From: a virus
Virus record (IMG/VR): IMGVR_UViG_3300040758_000047
Coordinates: 1 to 64,000 of that record
Reading direction: 5' to 3' (one strand)
Length of the DNA stretch: 64,000 bases
Part shown: positions 2,220-49,527 of the stretch, one piece after another
Position numbering within the stretch: position 1 is the stretch's first letter
Layout of the letters: each line of letters starts with the position of its first letter
Position numbers and translations under genes: made by a program
Notes under the pieces: generated by a model
What the model was told of the DNA's origin: nothing
Seen by the model: only the letters and a program-made list of their open reading frames with translations
Database searches by the model: none

Positions 2220-2599
2220 GCGACGAGTCCCACGTTGTACCGATTAACCTAGCGTCCAAATCAGCCCACAATAAAGAAACCCGGCCTCTGTATAACGAAG
2301 AAGGTGAGCAGATTGGGATGGCCACCTTGGAATGCGAGATAACCTACTCGCGGGTCATCCAAGCGGGGGAAGACACCTACCTCATGGTGGACGAAAAGAA
2401 CTGGGATGTAGCGCGCGGACGGTTTCCCTGGAAGATGACCGCGCGCACCCTCCCTGTGACGGCTCGCAAGTTAGGAATGGCTATGGTGGCCAAAACGGAT
2501 TACGCTGGCTATGTTCTGATTGAGATCGGCGAGCATATGTTCGTGGTTCCTGAACGGCACACGGAGGCGCTATGCAGGATGTACCCACAGAACCCATAA
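2216..2599 (+). CDS. hypothetical protein
   Basis: GGGAGG RBS; GTGA overlap with the upstream stop. Confidence 0.6.
   Translation: MSDESHVVPINLASKSAHNKETRPLYNEEGEQIGMATLECEITYSRVIQAGEDTYLMVDEKNWDVARGRFPWKMTARTLPVTARKLGMAMVAKTDYAGYVLIEIGEHMFVVPERHTEALCRMYPQNP
2227..2240. promoter_or_regulatory. parS-like palindromic site
   Basis: GTCCCACGTTGTAC. Confidence 0.7.
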
Positions 2600-2967
2600 C
2601 AATTAGATTCTTGGGGTTCGCATCGAAAAAGAACTTCTGGCGTCCCGGCAAAAACGGTAGAGGAATCTACCTCGACAAGAAGACTCGCGCCTTAGTCGAG
2701 CGTATGGAGCTTCAGGTGCCCGCTGAAGTTAGAGACTTGCGATTGGAAAGCCCTGACATGATCTGGACCTTCCGGTATACCAACGGTCACGCTGACCGCG
2801 ATGGGATCATGGTCACAGTACTCGATATCCTACAGAAATATGGTGTGCTGGTCAACGATTCGATCACAAGGTGTAATGGTCTGTGGACGGTTCACCCGGC
2901 TGAACGTGGGGAGTACGATGAAGTTGAGGTGACACTGATACCGAGAGAGCCCCGTGTCCCACATTGA
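2572..2967 (+). CDS. RusA-like Holliday junction resolvase
   Basis: SKKN motif and DRDG..VLDILQKYGVLVNDS acidic motifs typical of the RusA family. Confidence 0.65.
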   Translation: MQDVPTEPITIRFLGFASKKNFWRPGKNGRGIYLDKKTRALVERMELQVPAEVRDLRLESPDMIWTFRYTNGHADRDGIMVTVLDILQKYGVLVNDSITRCNGLWTVHPAERGEYDEVEVTLIPREPRVPH

Positions 2968-3253
2968 GCACATCCGAGACAAGTTAGCTAATCTGGAGGT
3001 CCGCCAACTACTGCGGGACGCCTCACGCCGACAGGCTAGCATCTTAAGGAAAGCCTACCGTTTCCGCAAGCTGGGAAGATTCGACCACCTCTTACATTTA
3101 CAATGTGGGATGACCTTGTGCTACGACAGGGCAGGAAAGTTGTGTTGGGCAAGCGCACCCAGAATCACTCAGGATAACAATCAGCAGTGCGAGATGGAGT
3201 TCATCTCCGACTCCGACCCCGCTTTGCCTTCCGTTTCTTCACCACAGAGTTAG
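2954..3253 (+). CDS. hypothetical protein
   Basis: ORF overlapping the upstream gene. Confidence 0.45.
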   Translation: MSHIEHIRDKLANLEVRQLLRDASRRQASILRKAYRFRKLGRFDHLLHLQCGMTLCYDRAGKLCWASAPRITQDNNQQCEMEFISDSDPALPSVSSPQS

Positions 3254-3386
3254 CCGCTCTTATGGCGGCACCCTCTGAGTACCCGCGTTCCAACATGCTG
3301 TTCGAAACGTGGCTCCATTGTCTCTGGGCCTTTCGGCTTTTCGCTTTTTTCGTGTGGCGCTTGGCATCACTTGGTTTCCAGGGCAT
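3201..3386 (-). CDS. small basic phage protein
   Basis: AGGAGG RBS; K/R-rich 61 aa; last gene of the late operon. Confidence 0.75.
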   Translation of the reverse strand: MPWKPSDAKRHTKKAKSRKAQRQWSHVSNSMLERGYSEGAAIRAANSVVKKRKAKRGRSRR

Positions 3387-3395
3387 AATATCCTC

Positions 3396-5321
3396 CTAAT
3401 TGTGACCTGTTAGGGGCGGATTTTGGATTACGGTGCCGTTCAAAAACTTGGTCCACTTCCGAATTCCGGCCTTATTGCGCCCGAGTGGTTCTACTTCAAT
3501 GCTCTTGATCTTGCCGCCGTATCGAGAAAGCATTTTAGAGACATTCGCTGGGGCTTGGTCTGAATCGTATTCGAGGGCACTGATCGTTTTCCCGCTGGCG
3601 TCTTTGGCTGTCAGTCGTATGCCCTCAAGGTTTACTTCGGTGGCCTTCTCGAATATAGATCGCACGGCTTGATGTAGTTCCTGTTGTTCTGACGTCTCGG
3701 GAGCGCTGGAGCCCTTCTGCGCCCCCTCAGTTTTCGGAGGGGCGGTCGCCGATTCGGGCGGAAGATTGGCTAGCGCTCCCGAATCCTTTTCACGTCCTTT
3801 TGGAGTCCCACGTTGTACTTCAGGTGGTGGGGAAGGCTTTTCTCCTGCCTTTAATTTCGCTTCCAGTTCCGCGATCCGCTTATTGTTAGCCGCAATCTTG
3901 TCCTCGGGGGATTCCTTTGCGACAACGGGTTCAGGAGGAAGGGAGGGCTTCCCTGCGGGTTCCCCCGTTTTTGGCATTTCCACCACATTCTGCTTGTGTG
4001 GAGGATTTTCCAGCACACCCATTTTCTCGGGACTCGGGACTGGCAAGACAGGCTCTTTCCCTTGGCTTGCCATGGCCTCCCTACGCACTCCAGAAACCTG
4101 AGAACGGCCTATGGATTCCGGGGTGGGCTCAGGTGGCGGGGCCGCAGTCGAAGCAGTGGCGGGCTTCTGTGGGCCAGCAGCGGGGGTTTCCTGGGAAACC
4201 GGGGTAGGAATAGACTTCGGGGATGGCTTGGCGGGTGGTTTGGTCTCCTGTACTCGCTCAGGTGGCTTCGCTAAAGGCTTTCCCGCTGCTGGGGTCTTGG
4301 CTTGTCGAGCTTCAAACTTCTTCAGGGCGTCATCAAGAAGTCGTTGCTTTTCCGCTTCGGTGGCGTTGGCGACTTTGTCCCAGGCGGTTTGGGCGGGTGA
4401 CAGCTTGGGAGATTCAGTCTTGGCCTCTGGAGGGGGTGGGGCGGGCGGACCAACAGGACCTTCTGGCCCCTTCGGAGTTTCCACGGTGGGCTTCGCTTCG
4501 ACTGGAGGCTTACCGGCCTTACCGCCTTTGGTCGCTGCTGCAATTAGGGCTATGTCACCTAAAGCGCGAGCGGCCTGCTTTCCGACTTCACGGTAATTAC
4601 CAGATTGGAGCGCATCTGCCGCCTCTGGAAAAGACTGAATAAAGTCATAACTCTGTGCGCCGATAAAGCCAGTTTTTATCATTTTACCTAGAACGTTTAT
4701 GGCTTTGGCCGCTCGCGGAAAATTGGCGAGTTTGGATTCCGGTAGCAGTATCGACCCAATAAGAAAGGCTGCGTTGAGCGGAGATGTCATACTGAGTCCG
4801 GTGTCGGCCAGTCCTTCACCTAACCCCGCCGAGAACTCCTGAACATTCTTAGGCGCTCCAGCTACTTTAGGGATTTCCTGGGCAGCCCAAGCGGCACCTT
4901 TCTCAACAGCAGGCTTGACGACTCCCTGTACTACCTCAGACGGCAGAAACGCCAGCCCTGGGAGTACGGAACCGCCGGTCAACTGGTTCTTGATTGCCGT
5001 GCCTACCTCGGACAAGGAGGGAAAATGTGCTTTGCCGGATGGTTCAGGCGGACTCTCAGGCTTACCGTTGGCGGATTTCGGGGCACCGTCTGACGGCTCA
5101 AGGCCCTTGATACTGTACAGGTTGTTAAACCCAGGAACGTGCCCTTGCATGTACTGGGCCCATTGTTGTGGGGTTATTTTACCCGGAGTCTCCTTAAGCA
5201 TCTGCTTGGTGGCCTGCCGGTAGACGTCGTACTTCGGGTCACCCGATGTCACAGCCTGTTTCATCTTAGTCGCGAACTCTTCTGCGGTGACTTCGCGAGG
5301 TTTCTGGGGCTGAGGGGTCAT
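3396..5321 (-). CDS. putative internal virion/ejection protein, Pro/Glu/Lys-rich
   Basis: 641 aa; position after nozzle and GNAT genes; low-complexity C-terminal half. Confidence 0.55.
   Translation of the reverse strand: MTPQPQKPREVTAEEFATKMKQAVTSGDPKYDVYRQATKQMLKETPGKITPQQWAQYMQGHVPGFNNLYSIKGLEPSDGAPKSANGKPESPPEPSGKAHFPSLSEVGTAIKNQLTGGSVLPGLAFLPSEVVQGVVKPAVEKGAAWAAQEIPKVAGAPKNVQEFSAGLGEGLADTGLSMTSPLNAAFLIGSILLPESKLANFPRAAKAINVLGKMIKTGFIGAQSYDFIQSFPEAADALQSGNYREVGKQAARALGDIALIAAATKGGKAGKPPVEAKPTVETPKGPEGPVGPPAPPPPEAKTESPKLSPAQTAWDKVANATEAEKQRLLDDALKKFEARQAKTPAAGKPLAKPPERVQETKPPAKPSPKSIPTPVSQETPAAGPQKPATASTAAPPPEPTPESIGRSQVSGVRREAMASQGKEPVLPVPSPEKMGVLENPPHKQNVVEMPKTGEPAGKPSLPPEPVVAKESPEDKIAANNKRIAELEAKLKAGEKPSPPPEVQRGTPKGREKDSGALANLPPESATAPPKTEGAQKGSSAPETSEQQELHQAVRSIFEKATEVNLEGIRLTAKDASGKTISALEYDSDQAPANVSKMLSRYGGKIKSIEVEPLGRNKAGIRKWTKFLNGTVIQNPPLTGHN
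3805..3818. promoter_or_regulatory. parS-like palindromic site
   Basis: GTCCCACGTTGTAC. Confidence 0.7.
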
Positions 5322-43046: not shown

Positions 43047-44516
43047 TCAGAAAAGCGTCGAGGCGAGTTTGAAACAGGTCCGGGGGCTTGGCACCATTAG
43101 ATTTGAGCCGCTAAGGAACTGGCCGCTCACATCGATCGAGTTGTTCACGCCCTTGAATCCGGTAAACCCGAATTGAAACAGGTCTACCTGGGAGAAGTAC
43201 CACTCCACGTAGGCCGTGTTCAATCCGAACATCTTGCCGATCGGCGAGCTACCCGAAGGAAGATACCGCGAAATGACCACATCGGCGGCATTGAACCTGA
43301 AGTTCTGGAATCCCACGTTGGCCAGATCGTTGTCTTTATTCTCATACCGCATTGCAGGCTGCGTGCCCTGCCAGATCAAGTTCCAGCCGTTCTGTGTGAC
43401 CACTATCAGGTCCGGGTGATCCGAGCCCCAACAGGCGTTTCCATAGGCCGTGTTGAGTTGTGCCAAGGTGAACGTGGTCACCGTGGCCTGATAGGCATTC
43501 AGCCCGCCAACGGTGCCAGTCGTCAAACCATTGATATCGGTTCGGTTCTGGCCGCCGACTTGGGAGTAATTTGTTCCGTCGTCGATCCACTCATCAAATC
43601 CGTTCAGGTATTTAGCCCGCGCACCCTGCCCGTTCTGGTACATATTGACGGCCAGGATCTTCGCCATCTTCAATGAGGCGTTGAGGAACTTCATCTCTAC
43701 CTGATTGAAAATCGCCTCTTGGCCATCGTCGTTCATCGCGTCCCATCCGTATAGCGTGATGTTTACCCACGCTACCTTCAGGTCCACCGTGATCGCCGCG
43801 TCGGTCGTAACGAAGTTGATGTCCATCGTTTCGCCCTTGCCCATAAAATCGCCGAGGAGTTCCCCAACAATCACGGGCCTCCTTACGCGGCTGTTGCCCG
43901 CGAATCGTTCTGCTCTCTGCTGACTGAGCCTAGTAAATGCAGGATCTGCACCGTAGATGATCGTTCGTGTTGCGACCGGGTTCGCTATTCCCGGCCTTCT
44001 CACACTTTCATGTGAGACCAGACCATATCATCACCCCGAAGGGTGCCGCGCGCTTCCGAGCACTTGCCCGTACTCCCCGAAGGGATGGCCGTTGAACGTT
44101 CCCATTTCTGGGCTTCGCTGCTGATTACCCCGAAGGGCTTCCCAGCAATTCACGCGGTTTTCGAGGCGGCTTTCACCGCCAAGGGACTATCAGTTAATCC
44201 GTTGTCTTCTCTACGATGTAATCGTACACATCCTTGATGTTGCGACCGGGTTCGCTATTCCCGGCCTTCTGCAAGTTTCCCAGCAGAGCAGATCATCTCA
44301 TCGGCCCGCTTCGGGTCGCCTCGCGCTTCGGGCCGCTTGGCCCTACTCCCTCTCGGGATGATCGTTGAACCTTCCGACTCTCGTCGGCTTGGCTGCTGAT
44401 TGCCTTGCCCGCCAATTCGGGTTTAGGTGTCCCAGCAATTCACGAGGTTTGCATAACCGATCTCTCGGCTAAGGCCCTATGTCTAAGGCGTCCAGCTCCG
44501 TTAGCTGCAAGGCCAT
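43047..44516 (-). CDS. major capsid protein, spliced: join(44516-44486, 44231-44197, 43961-43047), 326 aa
   Basis: AGGAGG RBS then ATG 44516; removing two introns gives in-frame MALQLTELDAYVYDYIVEKTTDIIYGADPAFTRL...; located after scaffold; PDLIVVT and GFQNFRFN motifs. Confidence 0.88.
43962..44196 (-). ncRNA. group I intron 2 (235 nt, ORF-less, IA-like)
   Basis: P AAUUGCUGGGAA, Q AAUCAGCAG, R GUUCAACGGCCA, S GAUAUGGUCU; P1 exon GGAU/GUCC with U-G; P3 CCGCGUG/CGCGCGG; P7.1/7.2; terminal G; P10 UGAU/AUCA. Confidence 0.9.
43968..44270. repeat. 33-bp identical direct repeat (43968-44000 and 44238-44270) at the intron 3' ends
   Basis: TGTTGCGACCGGGTTCGCTATTCCCGGCCTTCT occurs twice. Confidence 0.93.
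44232..44485 (-). ncRNA. group I intron 1 (254 nt, ORF-less, IA-like)
   Basis: P AAUUGCUGGGA, Q AAUCAGCAG, R GUUCAACGAUCA, S GAGAUGAUCU; P1 exon GCCU/GGGC; P3 CCUCGUG/CGCGAGG; terminal G; P10 ACAU/AUGU. Confidence 0.9.
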
Positions 44517-44536
44517 TCTACGTACCTCCTATTTCA

Positions 44537-44565
44537 TTGACATTGAGTAGGGGTTGGCGTACACT
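44537..44565 (+). promoter_or_regulatory. leaderless promoter of the endonuclease gene
   Basis: TTGACA-17-TACACT, 6 nt before ATG 44572. Confidence 0.7.
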
Positions 44566-44571
44566 AAACGT

Positions 44572-45279
44572 ATGGAACAACCCCAGCAAACAAAGATCAG
44601 ACTGAGTACTCGCGTGTACAAGGCCTGTCCTCACTGCGGAGAACAACATTCCGCCAGAGAAATATGGCCGCACCGAAAACGGTGCGAGCTTAACCCTAAG
44701 AACCTGCCGAAGACGATAAAAGAGGCCCCAAAGAAAGGTCCGGGAATGCCTGTGTCTTGCAACTACTGCGGACACAAGACCGTGCAGTTGCTTCTTCAGA
44801 GACATTTCGCAACCTGCCCGAATATCACGATCCTCGAAGGACAGAAGGTCTGTACTATCTGCCAATCCATCCTGTCGATAGATGACTTTTCGGCTCATTG
44901 CAGATCTCCGGGCGGAAGAAGCAACATCTGCAAGAAGTGCGCCTGCGCGAGATCTACGACTTGGTATCACACGCCGAAGAATCACATGTCCCGTAGAGAA
45001 CGTATGGAATACAAACTCTACGGCCTCAGTCCAGAAGGACGAAAGTCCCTTGAGACTGCGCAGAACGGTCTGTGCGCCATTTGCGGTAAGCCGCCCAGCG
45101 GAGGACCGAAGAACGAGAGGCTGGCCGTCGATCACAATCACAATTTCCCCGGCACTCACCGAGCACTCCTTTGCGAGAAGTGCAATACAGGCCTCGGTGG
45201 GTTTTTGGACGACCCGGCCTTGCTCGTCAAGGCAATCGCTTACCTTGCGAGTCACCGAAAGATCGCCGCTGTTTCCTAG
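44572..45279 (+). CDS. endonuclease VII-motif (His-Me finger) free-standing homing endonuclease
   Basis: YGL..Q.GLCAICG..LAVDHNH..RALLCEKCNTGLG..DD..AIAYL; N-terminal zinc fingers. Confidence 0.9.
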   Translation: MEQPQQTKIRLSTRVYKACPHCGEQHSAREIWPHRKRCELNPKNLPKTIKEAPKKGPGMPVSCNYCGHKTVQLLLQRHFATCPNITILEGQKVCTICQSILSIDDFSAHCRSPGGRSNICKKCACARSTTWYHTPKNHMSRRERMEYKLYGLSPEGRKSLETAQNGLCAICGKPPSGGPKNERLAVDHNHNFPGTHRALLCEKCNTGLGGFLDDPALLVKAIAYLASHRKIAAVS

Positions 45280-45302
45280 CCTCATCTTGCCTTTCGGGAG
45301 CG

Positions 45303-46226
45303 CTATACTGCGCTCCCGCTCATTTCCTTCTCTAACTTCTTCTGGACGTACTGCTGCGAGATGATCCCTTTACCTAAAGGCGCTTCAATGGCGTCGCCTT
45401 CCTTGGGCTTCAACCGTTCCAGTTGGCGCCGCTGCAAAGGTCCCAGCTTCCTTCCGCCACCGCCGCCGTCCACAATCGTCGGACTGTGCCCGCTCAACGC
45501 CGCTGCTTGCTTGCGGCCCTCCGCAATGCCTTCTTCGCGAGCCGCCTTCTTCTCCGCTTCACGGGTCGCCGTATCGCGTGCTGCGAACTTATCCTTGTAG
45601 AAGTCGTTGTAGGCTTCGTCTGGGTCGATGTTCGCCATCGATGTTTTCTTAGCTTCGGCCAACTTCTTCATGTGCTCGAAGACGGCGGGCGCATCCAAGG
45701 CCTCTCCGAAGGTCTTCTCGTGCGCCCCGAATTTCGGCGTCAATTTCTGGTAGACCTCCTGGAAGCGATTGCCCCAACCGTTGATAGTCGAGTTCAGTTC
45801 GGGGCGGATTTCCTTGTCCCGAAATTCCGTCAGCTTCGAGGTCAGCGTGTTCACATCCACCACGCCCTTCGCGGTCAGCGATTCATCGATCAACTTCTTT
45901 ACGTCTTCGGCGGTCATATCAAGTTCTCCACGCGCCCGCAACTTCTCCACCTCTGCGGTGGCTTCGGCTAGTGATGTCCGAACGCGGCTGTGTTCTTGTT
46001 CCCACATAGGCCAATCTGTTTCCTTGAAGTGCCGCCATTTCTCCAACTCCTCGACTACCGGAGGCAGAGTTTCGTATTGAAGTGCTTTGACCCTGGGAAG
46101 TAATGGTTCCACTTGCTCCCCAAGTTCGGCATATCGTTTCACGGCAGGATACTTCTCGGAGATGGCCTTGAGACTGTTGCGTTCGCCGTCATCGGCGATC
46201 GCGGCTAATAGGTTCTCAAAGGGCAT
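45303..46226 (-). CDS. capsid scaffolding protein
   Basis: Charged, helical 307 aa between portal and capsid genes. Confidence 0.65.
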   Translation of the reverse strand: MPFENLLAAIADDGERNSLKAISEKYPAVKRYAELGEQVEPLLPRVKALQYETLPPVVEELEKWRHFKETDWPMWEQEHSRVRTSLAEATAEVEKLRARGELDMTAEDVKKLIDESLTAKGVVDVNTLTSKLTEFRDKEIRPELNSTINGWGNRFQEVYQKLTPKFGAHEKTFGEALDAPAVFEHMKKLAEAKKTSMANIDPDEAYNDFYKDKFAARDTATREAEKKAAREEGIAEGRKQAAALSGHSPTIVDGGGGGRKLGPLQRRQLERLKPKEGDAIEAPLGKGIISQQYVQKKLEKEMSGSAV

Positions 46227-47658: not shown

Positions 47659-49527
47659 CTATACGGGTGAGCCCTGTCGCTGACTTCTCGTTTGACGCGG
47701 CGTTCTTCCTGCACCCTTCGGCCCTCCACCAATACCCGCCTCGTGTTCTTTCTGCATTTCCTGTATGACAAGGTCTGCGTTCTCCGGGAATTCCGCTTGC
47801 CGATAAAGACCGTGAAGTGACAGAGCGCCCATCTTGAAATACGTGGCCGCCCTCACCTCCTTCTGCATTCTACTCGTTCCGTGAGTCGATCCAGGAGCGA
47901 TCTTCATACTGAATGCCCGCCAGAAATCCTCCTTCGGTGCCGAGGAAGGAACCATGGTCCCAGCGTCGTAATCGAAGTCTTCCGGCGTCATCCCGTCTGC
48001 CCCCAGCACTCTCATACGTCCGCTTAAAGTGGCGTACTGGAAGACGTTCGATACCATCTGTGACCCAGCTTCTTCTAATGCGATCTCAAGGTAGCGGCTT
48101 TCCAATTGGAATGGACCGCTCAACGTCTCCCTCATCTGTTCGATGGCTTCACCTCCCGGCACTTGCTTTTTCTTGGCGATGCCGGAGATGTCCAATGATC
48201 CAGAACGTTTCTTGATCGTCTCGACGAGATACCGGAGAAACTCTCCGATGTACGGAGGCAGATTCGGCGGGTCCATGTAGCGGAAGTCACCGGGTTGGGC
48301 GATTGGGTTCATCAGAATTTTTTGCGCCGGTTTAGCGGGTTGGAAGGCATCCCACACCACTTCGGCCATCGCACCACGCTTGCCCACTACGTTCAGGTTC
48401 AACGCTCTCTTTACGGCTTCCTCTACTCCGGCACCGATGCTATTCGTGGCTTGGCACTGTGGGATCAATCTTCGGTACTTCGAGATTCCACCGGGGCTCC
48501 ACACGCAGGGATTCAACTGAAGCATCGTGAAAGGATACAGTCCGTGCCAGAAGGGGCTTGGACCGTCGTACATGATCCGATCCCCGGCGAAAATCACCAG
48601 CCTCTTACGCGGGAATAATCTTGCTCCTGGGGGCACAAGATAGTGGTAATTGTACTGACTGGGATGAAGGTCCTGATTCTGAACGAACACTTCATTGCCA
48701 GATTCATTGATCGACCAATCGTCGAAATAGACCTCCTTCAACTCGATCACTGGGAACGGTACGTAGGTCCCTTCGGATTCTCGAACTGGACCGCCGCGCT
48801 GCGACATCTTGTGCTTCATGGCGGGACTCATCGCATTCCACGTGTACTCAGGCACGCTAGAAGGTCGAACGTACTTGTCCTGAGAAAGTGACCGGCTCAG
48901 GTTGACCGTGTACTTTTCCAGCCCTTGGCATTTCTCTTTGCCGAACTTGGCGTAGAAGTACGGGAGTGGTTTGTAGTTCTGATAGATGACCGCTGCCGAT
49001 TCCTGTATCTTTCCGTTACAGAGAACCGGAATCACCTGATCGGCCCCGTGCGCTGAAAACTGGAATTGGTTTTCTCCGGCTACGTGCTTCAGGAATCCTG
49101 TCCCAAATAGCGCATGGTCCAGCCACTCCACCACAATCGCATCCAGGTTCATGTTGAACCACAGCGACCGGATGTACTTGTGAACCGTCTCGGCTTGCTT
49201 TTTGTACGCCTCGACCGATGACGTGATGTCGATAGTAGGGCGGATCTGACTCAATGACGACAGGGCTTCTAAACGCATATCACCCATGTAATCGTCATAG
49301 TACTTTGACCTGTAGTCTGGACGTGTCGAGGGATACCAGTTGCCGTCCAAGTAGTCCAGGATTCTTTCGATCTCTTGCAGGTCCCGCCAAGAGCGCATTT
49401 CCTCCATCCCCTGGCGGAGAAGGGCGTCGCGCCAACCTAGAAGTTTTCTAGAGTATTGGTCAGGGAAATCGCGCGAGCCAGAATTGCGTTCGACGGATGC
49501 GCGAGGAACGATCGCTAACGAAGCCAT
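47659..49527 (-). CDS. portal protein
   Basis: 622 aa between TerL and scaffold; ALFGTGFLK, SPFWHGLYPF, Q..TN..and SG..DISG portal motifs. Confidence 0.85.
   Translation of the reverse strand: MASLAIVPRASVERNSGSRDFPDQYSRKLLGWRDALLRQGMEEMRSWRDLQEIERILDYLDGNWYPSTRPDYRSKYYDDYMGDMRLEALSSLSQIRPTIDITSSVEAYKKQAETVHKYIRSLWFNMNLDAIVVEWLDHALFGTGFLKHVAGENQFQFSAHGADQVIPVLCNGKIQESAAVIYQNYKPLPYFYAKFGKEKCQGLEKYTVNLSRSLSQDKYVRPSSVPEYTWNAMSPAMKHKMSQRGGPVRESEGTYVPFPVIELKEVYFDDWSINESGNEVFVQNQDLHPSQYNYHYLVPPGARLFPRKRLVIFAGDRIMYDGPSPFWHGLYPFTMLQLNPCVWSPGGISKYRRLIPQCQATNSIGAGVEEAVKRALNLNVVGKRGAMAEVVWDAFQPAKPAQKILMNPIAQPGDFRYMDPPNLPPYIGEFLRYLVETIKKRSGSLDISGIAKKKQVPGGEAIEQMRETLSGPFQLESRYLEIALEEAGSQMVSNVFQYATLSGRMRVLGADGMTPEDFDYDAGTMVPSSAPKEDFWRAFSMKIAPGSTHGTSRMQKEVRAATYFKMGALSLHGLYRQAEFPENADLVIQEMQKEHEAGIGGGPKGAGRTPRQTRSQRQGSPV

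Follow-up and report, generated by a model that had tools for sequence, protein, structure and literature searches.

Collaborative or trans homing has been reported from cyanophage S-PM2, T3/T7-like phages, T4 mobE and ICP1 (PMC6083498; PMC3984707; bioRxiv 10.1101/2023.03.23.533998), and has been proposed as an intermediate step in the origin of mobile introns, one that is known from very few examples. It is established for F-CphI and the psbA intron of cyanophage S-PM2 (Zeng, Bonocora and Shub, 2009; Fang et al., 2018, PMC6083498) and discussed for the others. The T4 mobE/I-TevIII, T3/T7-like and ICP1 terminase systems also have a free-standing endonuclease beside an intron-containing essential gene (PMC2790892; bioRxiv 10.1101/2023.03.23.533998), with other nuclease families (HNH, T5orf172) and other genes (nrdB, DNA polymerase, terminase) involved. 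The locus described here lies in a window of 64,000 nucleotides (nt) of the IMG/VR record IMGVR_UViG_3300040758_000047, from an uncultured soil phage, and all coordinates refer to this window. It comprises a free-standing nuclease gene of the DHHRN/endonuclease VII (EndoVII) type and, next to it, a major capsid gene in which the first 66 nt are interrupted by two group I introns lacking an open reading frame (ORF). It is considered probable, with some reserve, that the nuclease is a free-standing homing endonuclease and that it forms one mobile cassette with these introns. The full record, a complete virus genome of 96,503 bp with direct terminal repeats, has a single PF02945 gene and no more than two RF00028 introns, all of them adjacent; an Rfam scan of the window and of the entire record detected no further group I intron. 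Relatives were collected through capsid-protein scans and consist of 18 viral contigs, 31 metagenome contigs and one contig of a metagenome-assembled genome (labelled Candidatus Sulfotelmatobacter), with L-numbers designating the related contigs or loci.

When compared to F-CphI and psbA, the locus shares the nuclease family, but several features are distinct. In this uncultured soil phage it is the major capsid gene that hosts the introns, and the nuclease gene lies upstream of and antisense to it instead of downstream and co-directional. Two introns in tandem enclose a 35-nt exon and belong to a family found at six sites in the relatives.

The predicted nuclease (44572-45279, + strand; 235 amino acids (aa) plus stop codon) is a member of the DHHRN family, with an EndoVII motif resembling those of F-CphI and Hpy99I and with its catalytic and zinc residues intact. 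Its residues 154-232 match Pfam Endonuclease_7 (PF02945) with an E value of 4.4e-18 and a score of 65 bits (cut-off 23.6), and endonuclease VII families of PHROG are matched with an E value of 3e-30. F-CphI (from AJ630128) aligns to it along its entire length (31% identity, E 1e-17), with residues 10-142 of F-CphI corresponding to aa 92-229, including the zinc-ribbon segment before the catalytic core. The likeness to F-CphI had been put forward in an earlier note on this DNA, and the full-length homology bears it out. In an alignment of 47 sequences D187, H188, H190, R197 and N205 are invariant or nearly so, as are C168, C171, C201 and C204, which form both CxxC pairs of the zinc site, and the same is true of the DHHRN residues and Cys pairs in nine active copies from nine related lineages.

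The protein is arranged as three N-terminal zinc-finger-like modules followed by a C-terminal beta-beta-alpha-metal catalytic domain. The first ~90 residues, which have no counterpart in F-CphI, comprise two added beta-beta-alpha zinc-finger-like modules, and the number of modules is shuffled among relatives. An AlphaFold2 model (predicted local distance difference test score 88.6) has Hpy99I as its best fold match (Foldseek E 4e-7), and Hpy99I (3fc3) is also the best PDB match by sequence (E 1e-9, aa 91-230). The nuclease shares with this sequence-specific duplex cutter a zinc-ribbon and beta-beta-alpha-metal architecture, whereas it differs in its setting within a phage structural operon and in its extra N-terminal fingers, and no adjacent methyltransferase was noted. 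A C-terminal motif has been associated with the 'endonuclease clade' of the DHHRN family, as opposed to the resolvase clade (Fang et al., 2018, PMC6083498), and the window nuclease has the layout of the former, with its motif at aa 154-232 of 235. It is a new zinc-finger-plus-DHHRN nuclease, and its recognition site is probably long.

The nuclease gene is the sole + strand ORF between the scaffold and capsid genes, all surrounding genes of the window being located on the - strand. The earlier note had described it as inserted antisense between these two genes with a promoter of its own, 56 nt from the capsid start and under 100 nt from the first intron, and most of this description holds. The antisense placement is as stated; the neighbour named scaffold has a fitting position, but no family match stands behind that label. 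The gap to the capsid start is indeed short, but it amounts to 55 nt (ATG 44572 versus ATG 44516), and the distance from the nuclease ATG to the first base of intron A (44485) is 86 nt, within the stated limit of 100 nt. The promoter is represented by a sigma70-like site, TTGACA-17 nt-TACACT (44537-44565, + strand), detected by a consensus scan with 10 of 12 matches. This site ends 6 nt 5' of the nuclease ATG, implying that the nuclease mRNA is leaderless or nearly so, as predicted from this spacing. ATG 44572 is the likely start, preferred over an upstream TTG at 44554 because the latter falls inside the promoter-like site. The hexamers and spacing are identical in L006 and similar sites occur in L010, L015, L021 and L053, the site thus being kept in relatives with nucleases just 36-67% identical.

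The capsid gene is read from the - strand as three exons. Exon 1 (44516-44486, 31 nt), preceded by an AGGAGG ribosome-binding site, encodes MALQLTELDA and the first base of Tyr11, whose codon is split (T|AT) by intron A (44485-44232, 254 nt). Exon 2 is a 35-nt micro-exon (44231-44197) encoding (Y)VYDYIVEKTTD, recognised from intronless homologues, and is followed by intron B (44196-43962, 235 nt), located at the junction of codons 22 and 23, and then by exon 3 (43961-43047), which supplies 304 codons and the stop codon of the spliced product. The resulting major capsid protein of 326 aa matches the PHROG 9953 major head protein (E 7e-17), and tblastn searches with it returned distant matches to annotated capsid genes of Mx8, Mx9 and others. 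Neither intron contains an ORF, in agreement with the earlier note, and their Rfam scores of 51.8 bits (A) and 82.2 bits (B) both exceed the RF00028 gathering threshold of 50 bits. The ends given by Rfam are ambiguous, since 33 identical nt follow both introns and two sets of splice sites keep the frame open. Intronless relatives read (V/M)ALQLTELDAYVYD(H/Y)IVDKTTDIIYGADPAF uninterrupted, and the joined exons reproduce the N-terminus of these homologues, which fix the real 3' ends at 44232 and 43962, ~37-38 nt past the ends of the Rfam model. Both introns end in G. The 33-nt repeat was also considered as a duplicated exon or as a case of alternative or skipped splicing, and these options were discarded because the intronless homologues show it to be the introns' own 3' tail.

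The 3' tail folds as a hairpin, with compensatory changes across the intron family, and RNAalifold applied to the family predicted 60 pairs, 41 of which have compensatory changes. In P1, the guide GGGC of intron A pairs with exon GCCU and the guide GUCC of intron B with exon GGAU; a 4-bp guide-exon pairing that begins with G.U, formed by each intron with its own 5' exon, was found in 11 of 11 introns. By these features the introns are very probably real ribozymes, and self-splicing is predicted for them. The tails of introns A and B (44238-44270 and 43968-44000) are 100% identical over 33 nt and the cores 66.5%, a pattern suggesting that the two introns have undergone gene conversion in the same genome. 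A recent origin of intron A as a copy of B was considered and set aside, as the cores are 66.5% identical and the tail alone reaches ~90-100%, pointing to local conversion.

ORF-less introns of this one family (54-78% pairwise identity) have been found at six capsid sites, namely C (D9|A10), A (within Y11), E (D14|H15), D (R19|T20), B (D22|I23) and F (near codon 50). Five of the six fall within codons 9-23, nt 27-66, a 40-nt stretch. The family was noted in L013, L021, L027, L032, L033, L035, L049, L053 and the window (43962-44485), and L006 has an orthologous intron at site B that is 78% identical to intron B. This spread has the look of repeated ectopic moves by reverse-splicing-type transposition, or of retargeting after local moves, and the guide retargeting would document, from nature and with unusual clarity, how group I introns transpose ectopically within a protein-coding gene. 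In phage Twort, orf142 reportedly contains multiple small group I introns that lack ORFs and are separated by short exons, in work attributed to Landthaler and Shub from 1999. In contrast to orf142, the window introns are tied to an adjacent free-standing nuclease and have many alternative sites in relatives.

The intron family had no match beside other EndoVII genes in a search of 570 kb in which the positive control worked. The intron core motif is shared by 116 phage loci, and an EndoVII ORF is present in five of them; three of the five have it at most ~60 nt from the motif on the same strand, where it looks intron-encoded, indicating that this nuclease family and this intron class also partner in other ways. 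A separate observation concerns the site-E intron of L049 (1066-1080; also in L050 and L051), where the frame-keeping 3' splice site follows an A (...CTAAGA|CAC), the ortholog in L033 ending in the usual G. If splicing in L049 took place after the G before this A, the capsid reading frame would be lost, and the A-end may mean that the terminal nucleotide is unusual, that the intron is defective or that the assembly contains an error.

The distribution of the nuclease among relatives is that of an accessory gene. An EndoVII gene lies antisense between the scaffold and capsid genes in nine diverged lineages, with nucleases 28-71% identical, and is missing from this position in ten, including the L004-type genomes, in which the capsid is 88-89% identical to that of the window and the scaffold stop is just ~45 nt from the capsid start. 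Nuclease state switches at least four to five times on the capsid tree, and the copy number of the nuclease family varies from 0 to 4 among relatives; no copy was found in the five nuclease-less fragments that were searched. Considering only lineages with enough upstream DNA, nuclease and intron are both present in seven, nuclease occurs without intron in two, intron without nuclease in none, and both are absent from ten, giving a one-sided Fisher p of ~7e-4 (by hand, with lineages as counted). The co-occurrence in related phages that the earlier note had named as a check is thereby observed, the comparison over independent pairs (see below) being underpowered.

The contig L049 provides a view of the elements moving together, as it carries a nuclease and a site-E intron on a backbone that is otherwise near-identical to the nuclease-less L004-type. 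Its first 123 nt, which end 14 nt beyond the scaffold stop codon, are 100% identical to the L004-type, and the next ~1.07 kb, containing the nuclease, the promoter region, exon 1 and the intron, have no counterpart in L004. The exon that follows the intron has 27 mismatches to the L004-type, mostly synonymous, in its first 94 informative positions, with nt 61-120 of the divergent tract being 97% identical to the nuclease-bearing L006 type. Beyond this flank there are just 3 mismatches in 334 nt. This pattern is the signature of a break-repair exchange in which nuclease, intron and flanking exon appear to have been transferred as one unit. Its likeness to the T4 mobE, T3/T7-like and ICP1 cases lies in mosaic exchange boundaries that coincide with the nuclease locus.

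Accessory distribution, co-occurrence with introns and joint exchange of the cassette are what collaborative homing predicts, and on these comparisons the locus very probably contains a mobile nuclease-intron cassette, with collaborative homing being well supported. The candidate collaborative homing unit proposed in the earlier note is therefore retained as a candidate, now consisting of an accessory nuclease, clustered ORF-less introns and the joint exchange seen in L049, and that note's reading, in which the enzyme would cut intronless capsid alleles and the introns would protect their own genome, is supported in part. Together, these genomes constitute a natural series at one locus, from neither element to nuclease only, nuclease with one or two introns, introns at six sites and a recombinant caught in the act, so that both the sequence of events and the logic of targeting can be tested directly.

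In the proposed mechanism, the nuclease would be expressed from its own sigma70-type promoter and, in a mixed infection with a cassette-less relative, its zinc-finger modules would bind the recipient DNA, allowing the beta-beta-alpha-metal site to cut at the conserved 5' end of the recipient capsid gene or at the scaffold-capsid junction. Repair of the break on the nuclease-bearing template would then copy the nuclease, the intron or introns and ~100-150 nt of flanking exon into the recipient. The donor's own target would be interrupted by the introns or, in intronless lineages, by sequence polymorphisms, and self-splicing would restore an intact capsid mRNA, resulting in a low cost of insertion. 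In addition, ribosomes on the late mRNA could set out just past the scaffold stop codon and reach the capsid start by reading across the antisense nuclease gene. The cleavage site, the immunity mediated by the introns, and the translation and purpose of this late-strand frame are the steps that we infer.

This late-strand frame, referred to here as the bridge, spans 255 codons (44518-45285, - strand). It starts with an ATG at 45285, 17 nt after the scaffold stop, and ends with a TAG at 44520-44518, 1 nt before the capsid ATG, crossing the full nuclease gene on the opposite strand in codon-aligned register, and its openness therefore requires a nuclease gene without TTA, CTA and TCA. The left edge of the foreign tract in L049 coincides with the bridge ATG. 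The frame is open through the entire nuclease gene in nine of nine lineages, including both tandem copies of L010/L014, and also across two more tandem copies at a second locus of a relative (L058:2345-3421, - strand); TTA, CTA and TCA are avoided in all 11 antisense copies. In six lineages the first ATG of the bridge is located 7-18 nt past the scaffold stop codon, and the position at which the frame closes ranges from -26 to +50 nt relative to the capsid start. The other two late-strand frames contain 3-16 stops.

When the nine nuclease genes are pooled, CTA is observed 0 times against 14.3 expected, TTA 0 times against 10.8 and TCA once against 12.3, making these the three most depleted of the 61 codons, with 1 observed against 37 expected; for the window nuclease alone, synonymous resampling gave P = 2e-4. 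The possibility that an open antisense frame is a general trait of EndoVII genes or of codon usage was ruled out by several comparisons. A total of 80 other EndoVII loci have means of 1.6-6 of these codons per 100, even where antisense to their neighbours, and just one of the 14 antisense-inserted genes among them lacks all three; F-CphI, unlike the window nuclease, has five in 143 codons; in the window's late genes, each of 103 stretches of 242 codons contains at least one of them; and the nuclease genes make free use of other codons ending in A.

The simplest reading would be that selection maintains translation itself, keeping scaffold-to-capsid coupling or shielding the late transcript from polarity. 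If this is correct, ribosomes would reinitiate 7-18 nt after the scaffold stop and finish at the capsid start, and the operon would experience no polarity. The chances are about even that the cassette has evolved such a 'translational bridge' and, in addition, that the guide of the partner introns has been retargeted to at least six sites in the same gene. Avoidance of stops suggests a new way for a selfish gene to cut its cost when inserted backwards in an essential operon, and the bridge would be a rare clean case of an antisense open frame demonstrably under selection. No description of a comparable antisense bridge was found in a literature search, and none of the T4 mobE, T3/T7-like and ICP1 systems has been described with an antisense open frame.

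A number of observations weigh against collaborative homing as set out above. Two lineages have the nuclease and no intron (L010/L014 and L015-18), which means that the intron is not the sole route to self-immunity. The nuclease gene looks intact in the intronless L015-type genomes, and in L010/L014 its N-terminus looks frameshifted and the second copy degenerate. Across four to five independent pairs on the capsid tree, the intron changes in the same way as the nuclease in two to three and in the opposite way in none (sign test p 0.25-0.5). The nucleases of the window and L006 diverge synonymously as much as the flanking genes, indicating that these copies are old residents and not recent invaders. 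The exchange between L049 and L004 may have been either the gain or the replacement of a cassette, as the sequences fit both, and the target could be the intergenic region or the 3' end of the scaffold gene instead of the intron sites. Some of these points are shared by an account in which the homing endonuclease has its target outside the intron region, with introns that give no immunity and are co-converted by proximity or spread on their own by a transposition resembling reverse splicing. The nuclease-bearing intronless lineages agree with such an account, as do the nucleases of L021 and L053, which are 71% identical and adjoin introns at different sites, and the six-site intron family, where each member has its own retargeted guide and no nuclease is needed; hitch-hiking also has a precedent in T4 mobE and the defunct I-TevIII intron (PMC2790892). 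It is nonetheless rather unlikely, given that simple hitch-hiking leaves unexplained why five of the six insertion sites are concentrated in the stretch adjoining the nuclease gene, and that the intron family is found without the nuclease in 0 of 10 nuclease-less lineages.

A role other than homing has also been considered, with the nuclease acting as a structure-specific junction resolvase or debranching enzyme similar to T4 gp49 and clearing branched DNA before packaging. The name of the Pfam family and the place of the gene among head genes agree with this, and the nuclease shares with T4 endonuclease VII (gp49, a Holliday junction resolvase) the motif D-H-x-H...R...CxxCN and the zinc site. 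The sequence match is, however, weak (E 0.01 over 56 residues), with Hpy99I and PacI ranking above it, and the fold match, also ranked below Hpy99I, covers 86-89 columns of the catalytic core only. T4-type resolvases have an N-terminal catalytic motif followed by a C-terminal helical domain for dimerisation and junction binding, whereas the window nuclease has its motif after the zinc-finger modules and lacks such a domain. Instead of behaving as a conserved single-copy core gene, it has no scaffold-capsid copy in ten lineages and one to four copies in the others, and where relatives have capsids 88% identical to that of the window, their sequenced fragments lack it; it is antisense to the late operon with a host-type promoter. 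A resolvase function is thus regarded as very improbable. A similarly small chance is given to the proposition that the bridge frame is itself a functional protein gene, the nuclease reading being secondary or decaying. As would be expected of such a gene, every lineage keeps the frame open and the positions of its start and stop are conserved, but it is the nuclease frame that has the strong family matches and the invariant catalytic residues. The bridge product has no Pfam match, and four-fold synonymous sites of the nuclease diverge by 0.51, against 0.49-0.68 in neighbouring genes, which indicates that the bridge protein is not conserved beyond its stop-free state; without excess synonymous constraint, a conserved bridge protein was rejected. 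A homing endonuclease acting together with its neighbouring introns continues to be the preferred reading.

Regarding the genomic setting, the - strand neighbours comprise the portal gene (47659-49527, PHROG portal match), two small genes, the putative scaffolding protein gene (45303-46226, 307 aa) and the major capsid gene. The scaffold protein has neither a Pfam nor a PHROG match and is named from gene position alone, lying between portal and capsid, and its gene is conserved in relatives. A perfect 8-bp hairpin (GGGAGCGC, 6-nt loop, GCGCTCCC) is read from the sequence at 45296-45317. It is GC-rich and spans the scaffold stop codon, between the convergent ends of the nuclease and scaffold genes, and may serve as a terminator of the nuclease transcript or as an element of RNA processing or stability.

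Additional observations have been made in the relatives. Two tandem EndoVII ORFs occur between the scaffold and capsid genes of L010/L014 (6877-7890), with no intron; the second copy has no D-H-x-H residues and a frameshift seems to part the first from an upstream zinc-finger mini-ORF, so this nuclease may be decaying. The nuclease of L021, suspected at one point of being frameshifted, is a single 285-codon ORF, and that of L035 had no relatives among viral contigs. In a related complete genome, a second antisense EndoVII pair (L058, from G006:C1:59500-65500; 2381-3424) lies upstream of genes with SU10-adaptor-like domains and represents a second nuclease island in the structural module. Further large insertions are present inside the capsid gene of L052 (4098-4814) and L033 (1353-2147), at ~aa 70 and ~aa 258, with ORFs of 208 or 237 aa that contain LAGLIDADG-like motifs. 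L052, which has no EndoVII gene upstream, matches Pfam LAGLIDADG_1 (E 7e-4) and gives a weak Rfam group I match of 25.8 bits. The capsid start is apparently ACG in L021 (7704) and ATT in L053 (1948), in place of ATG or GTG, with a good GGAGG upstream in both.

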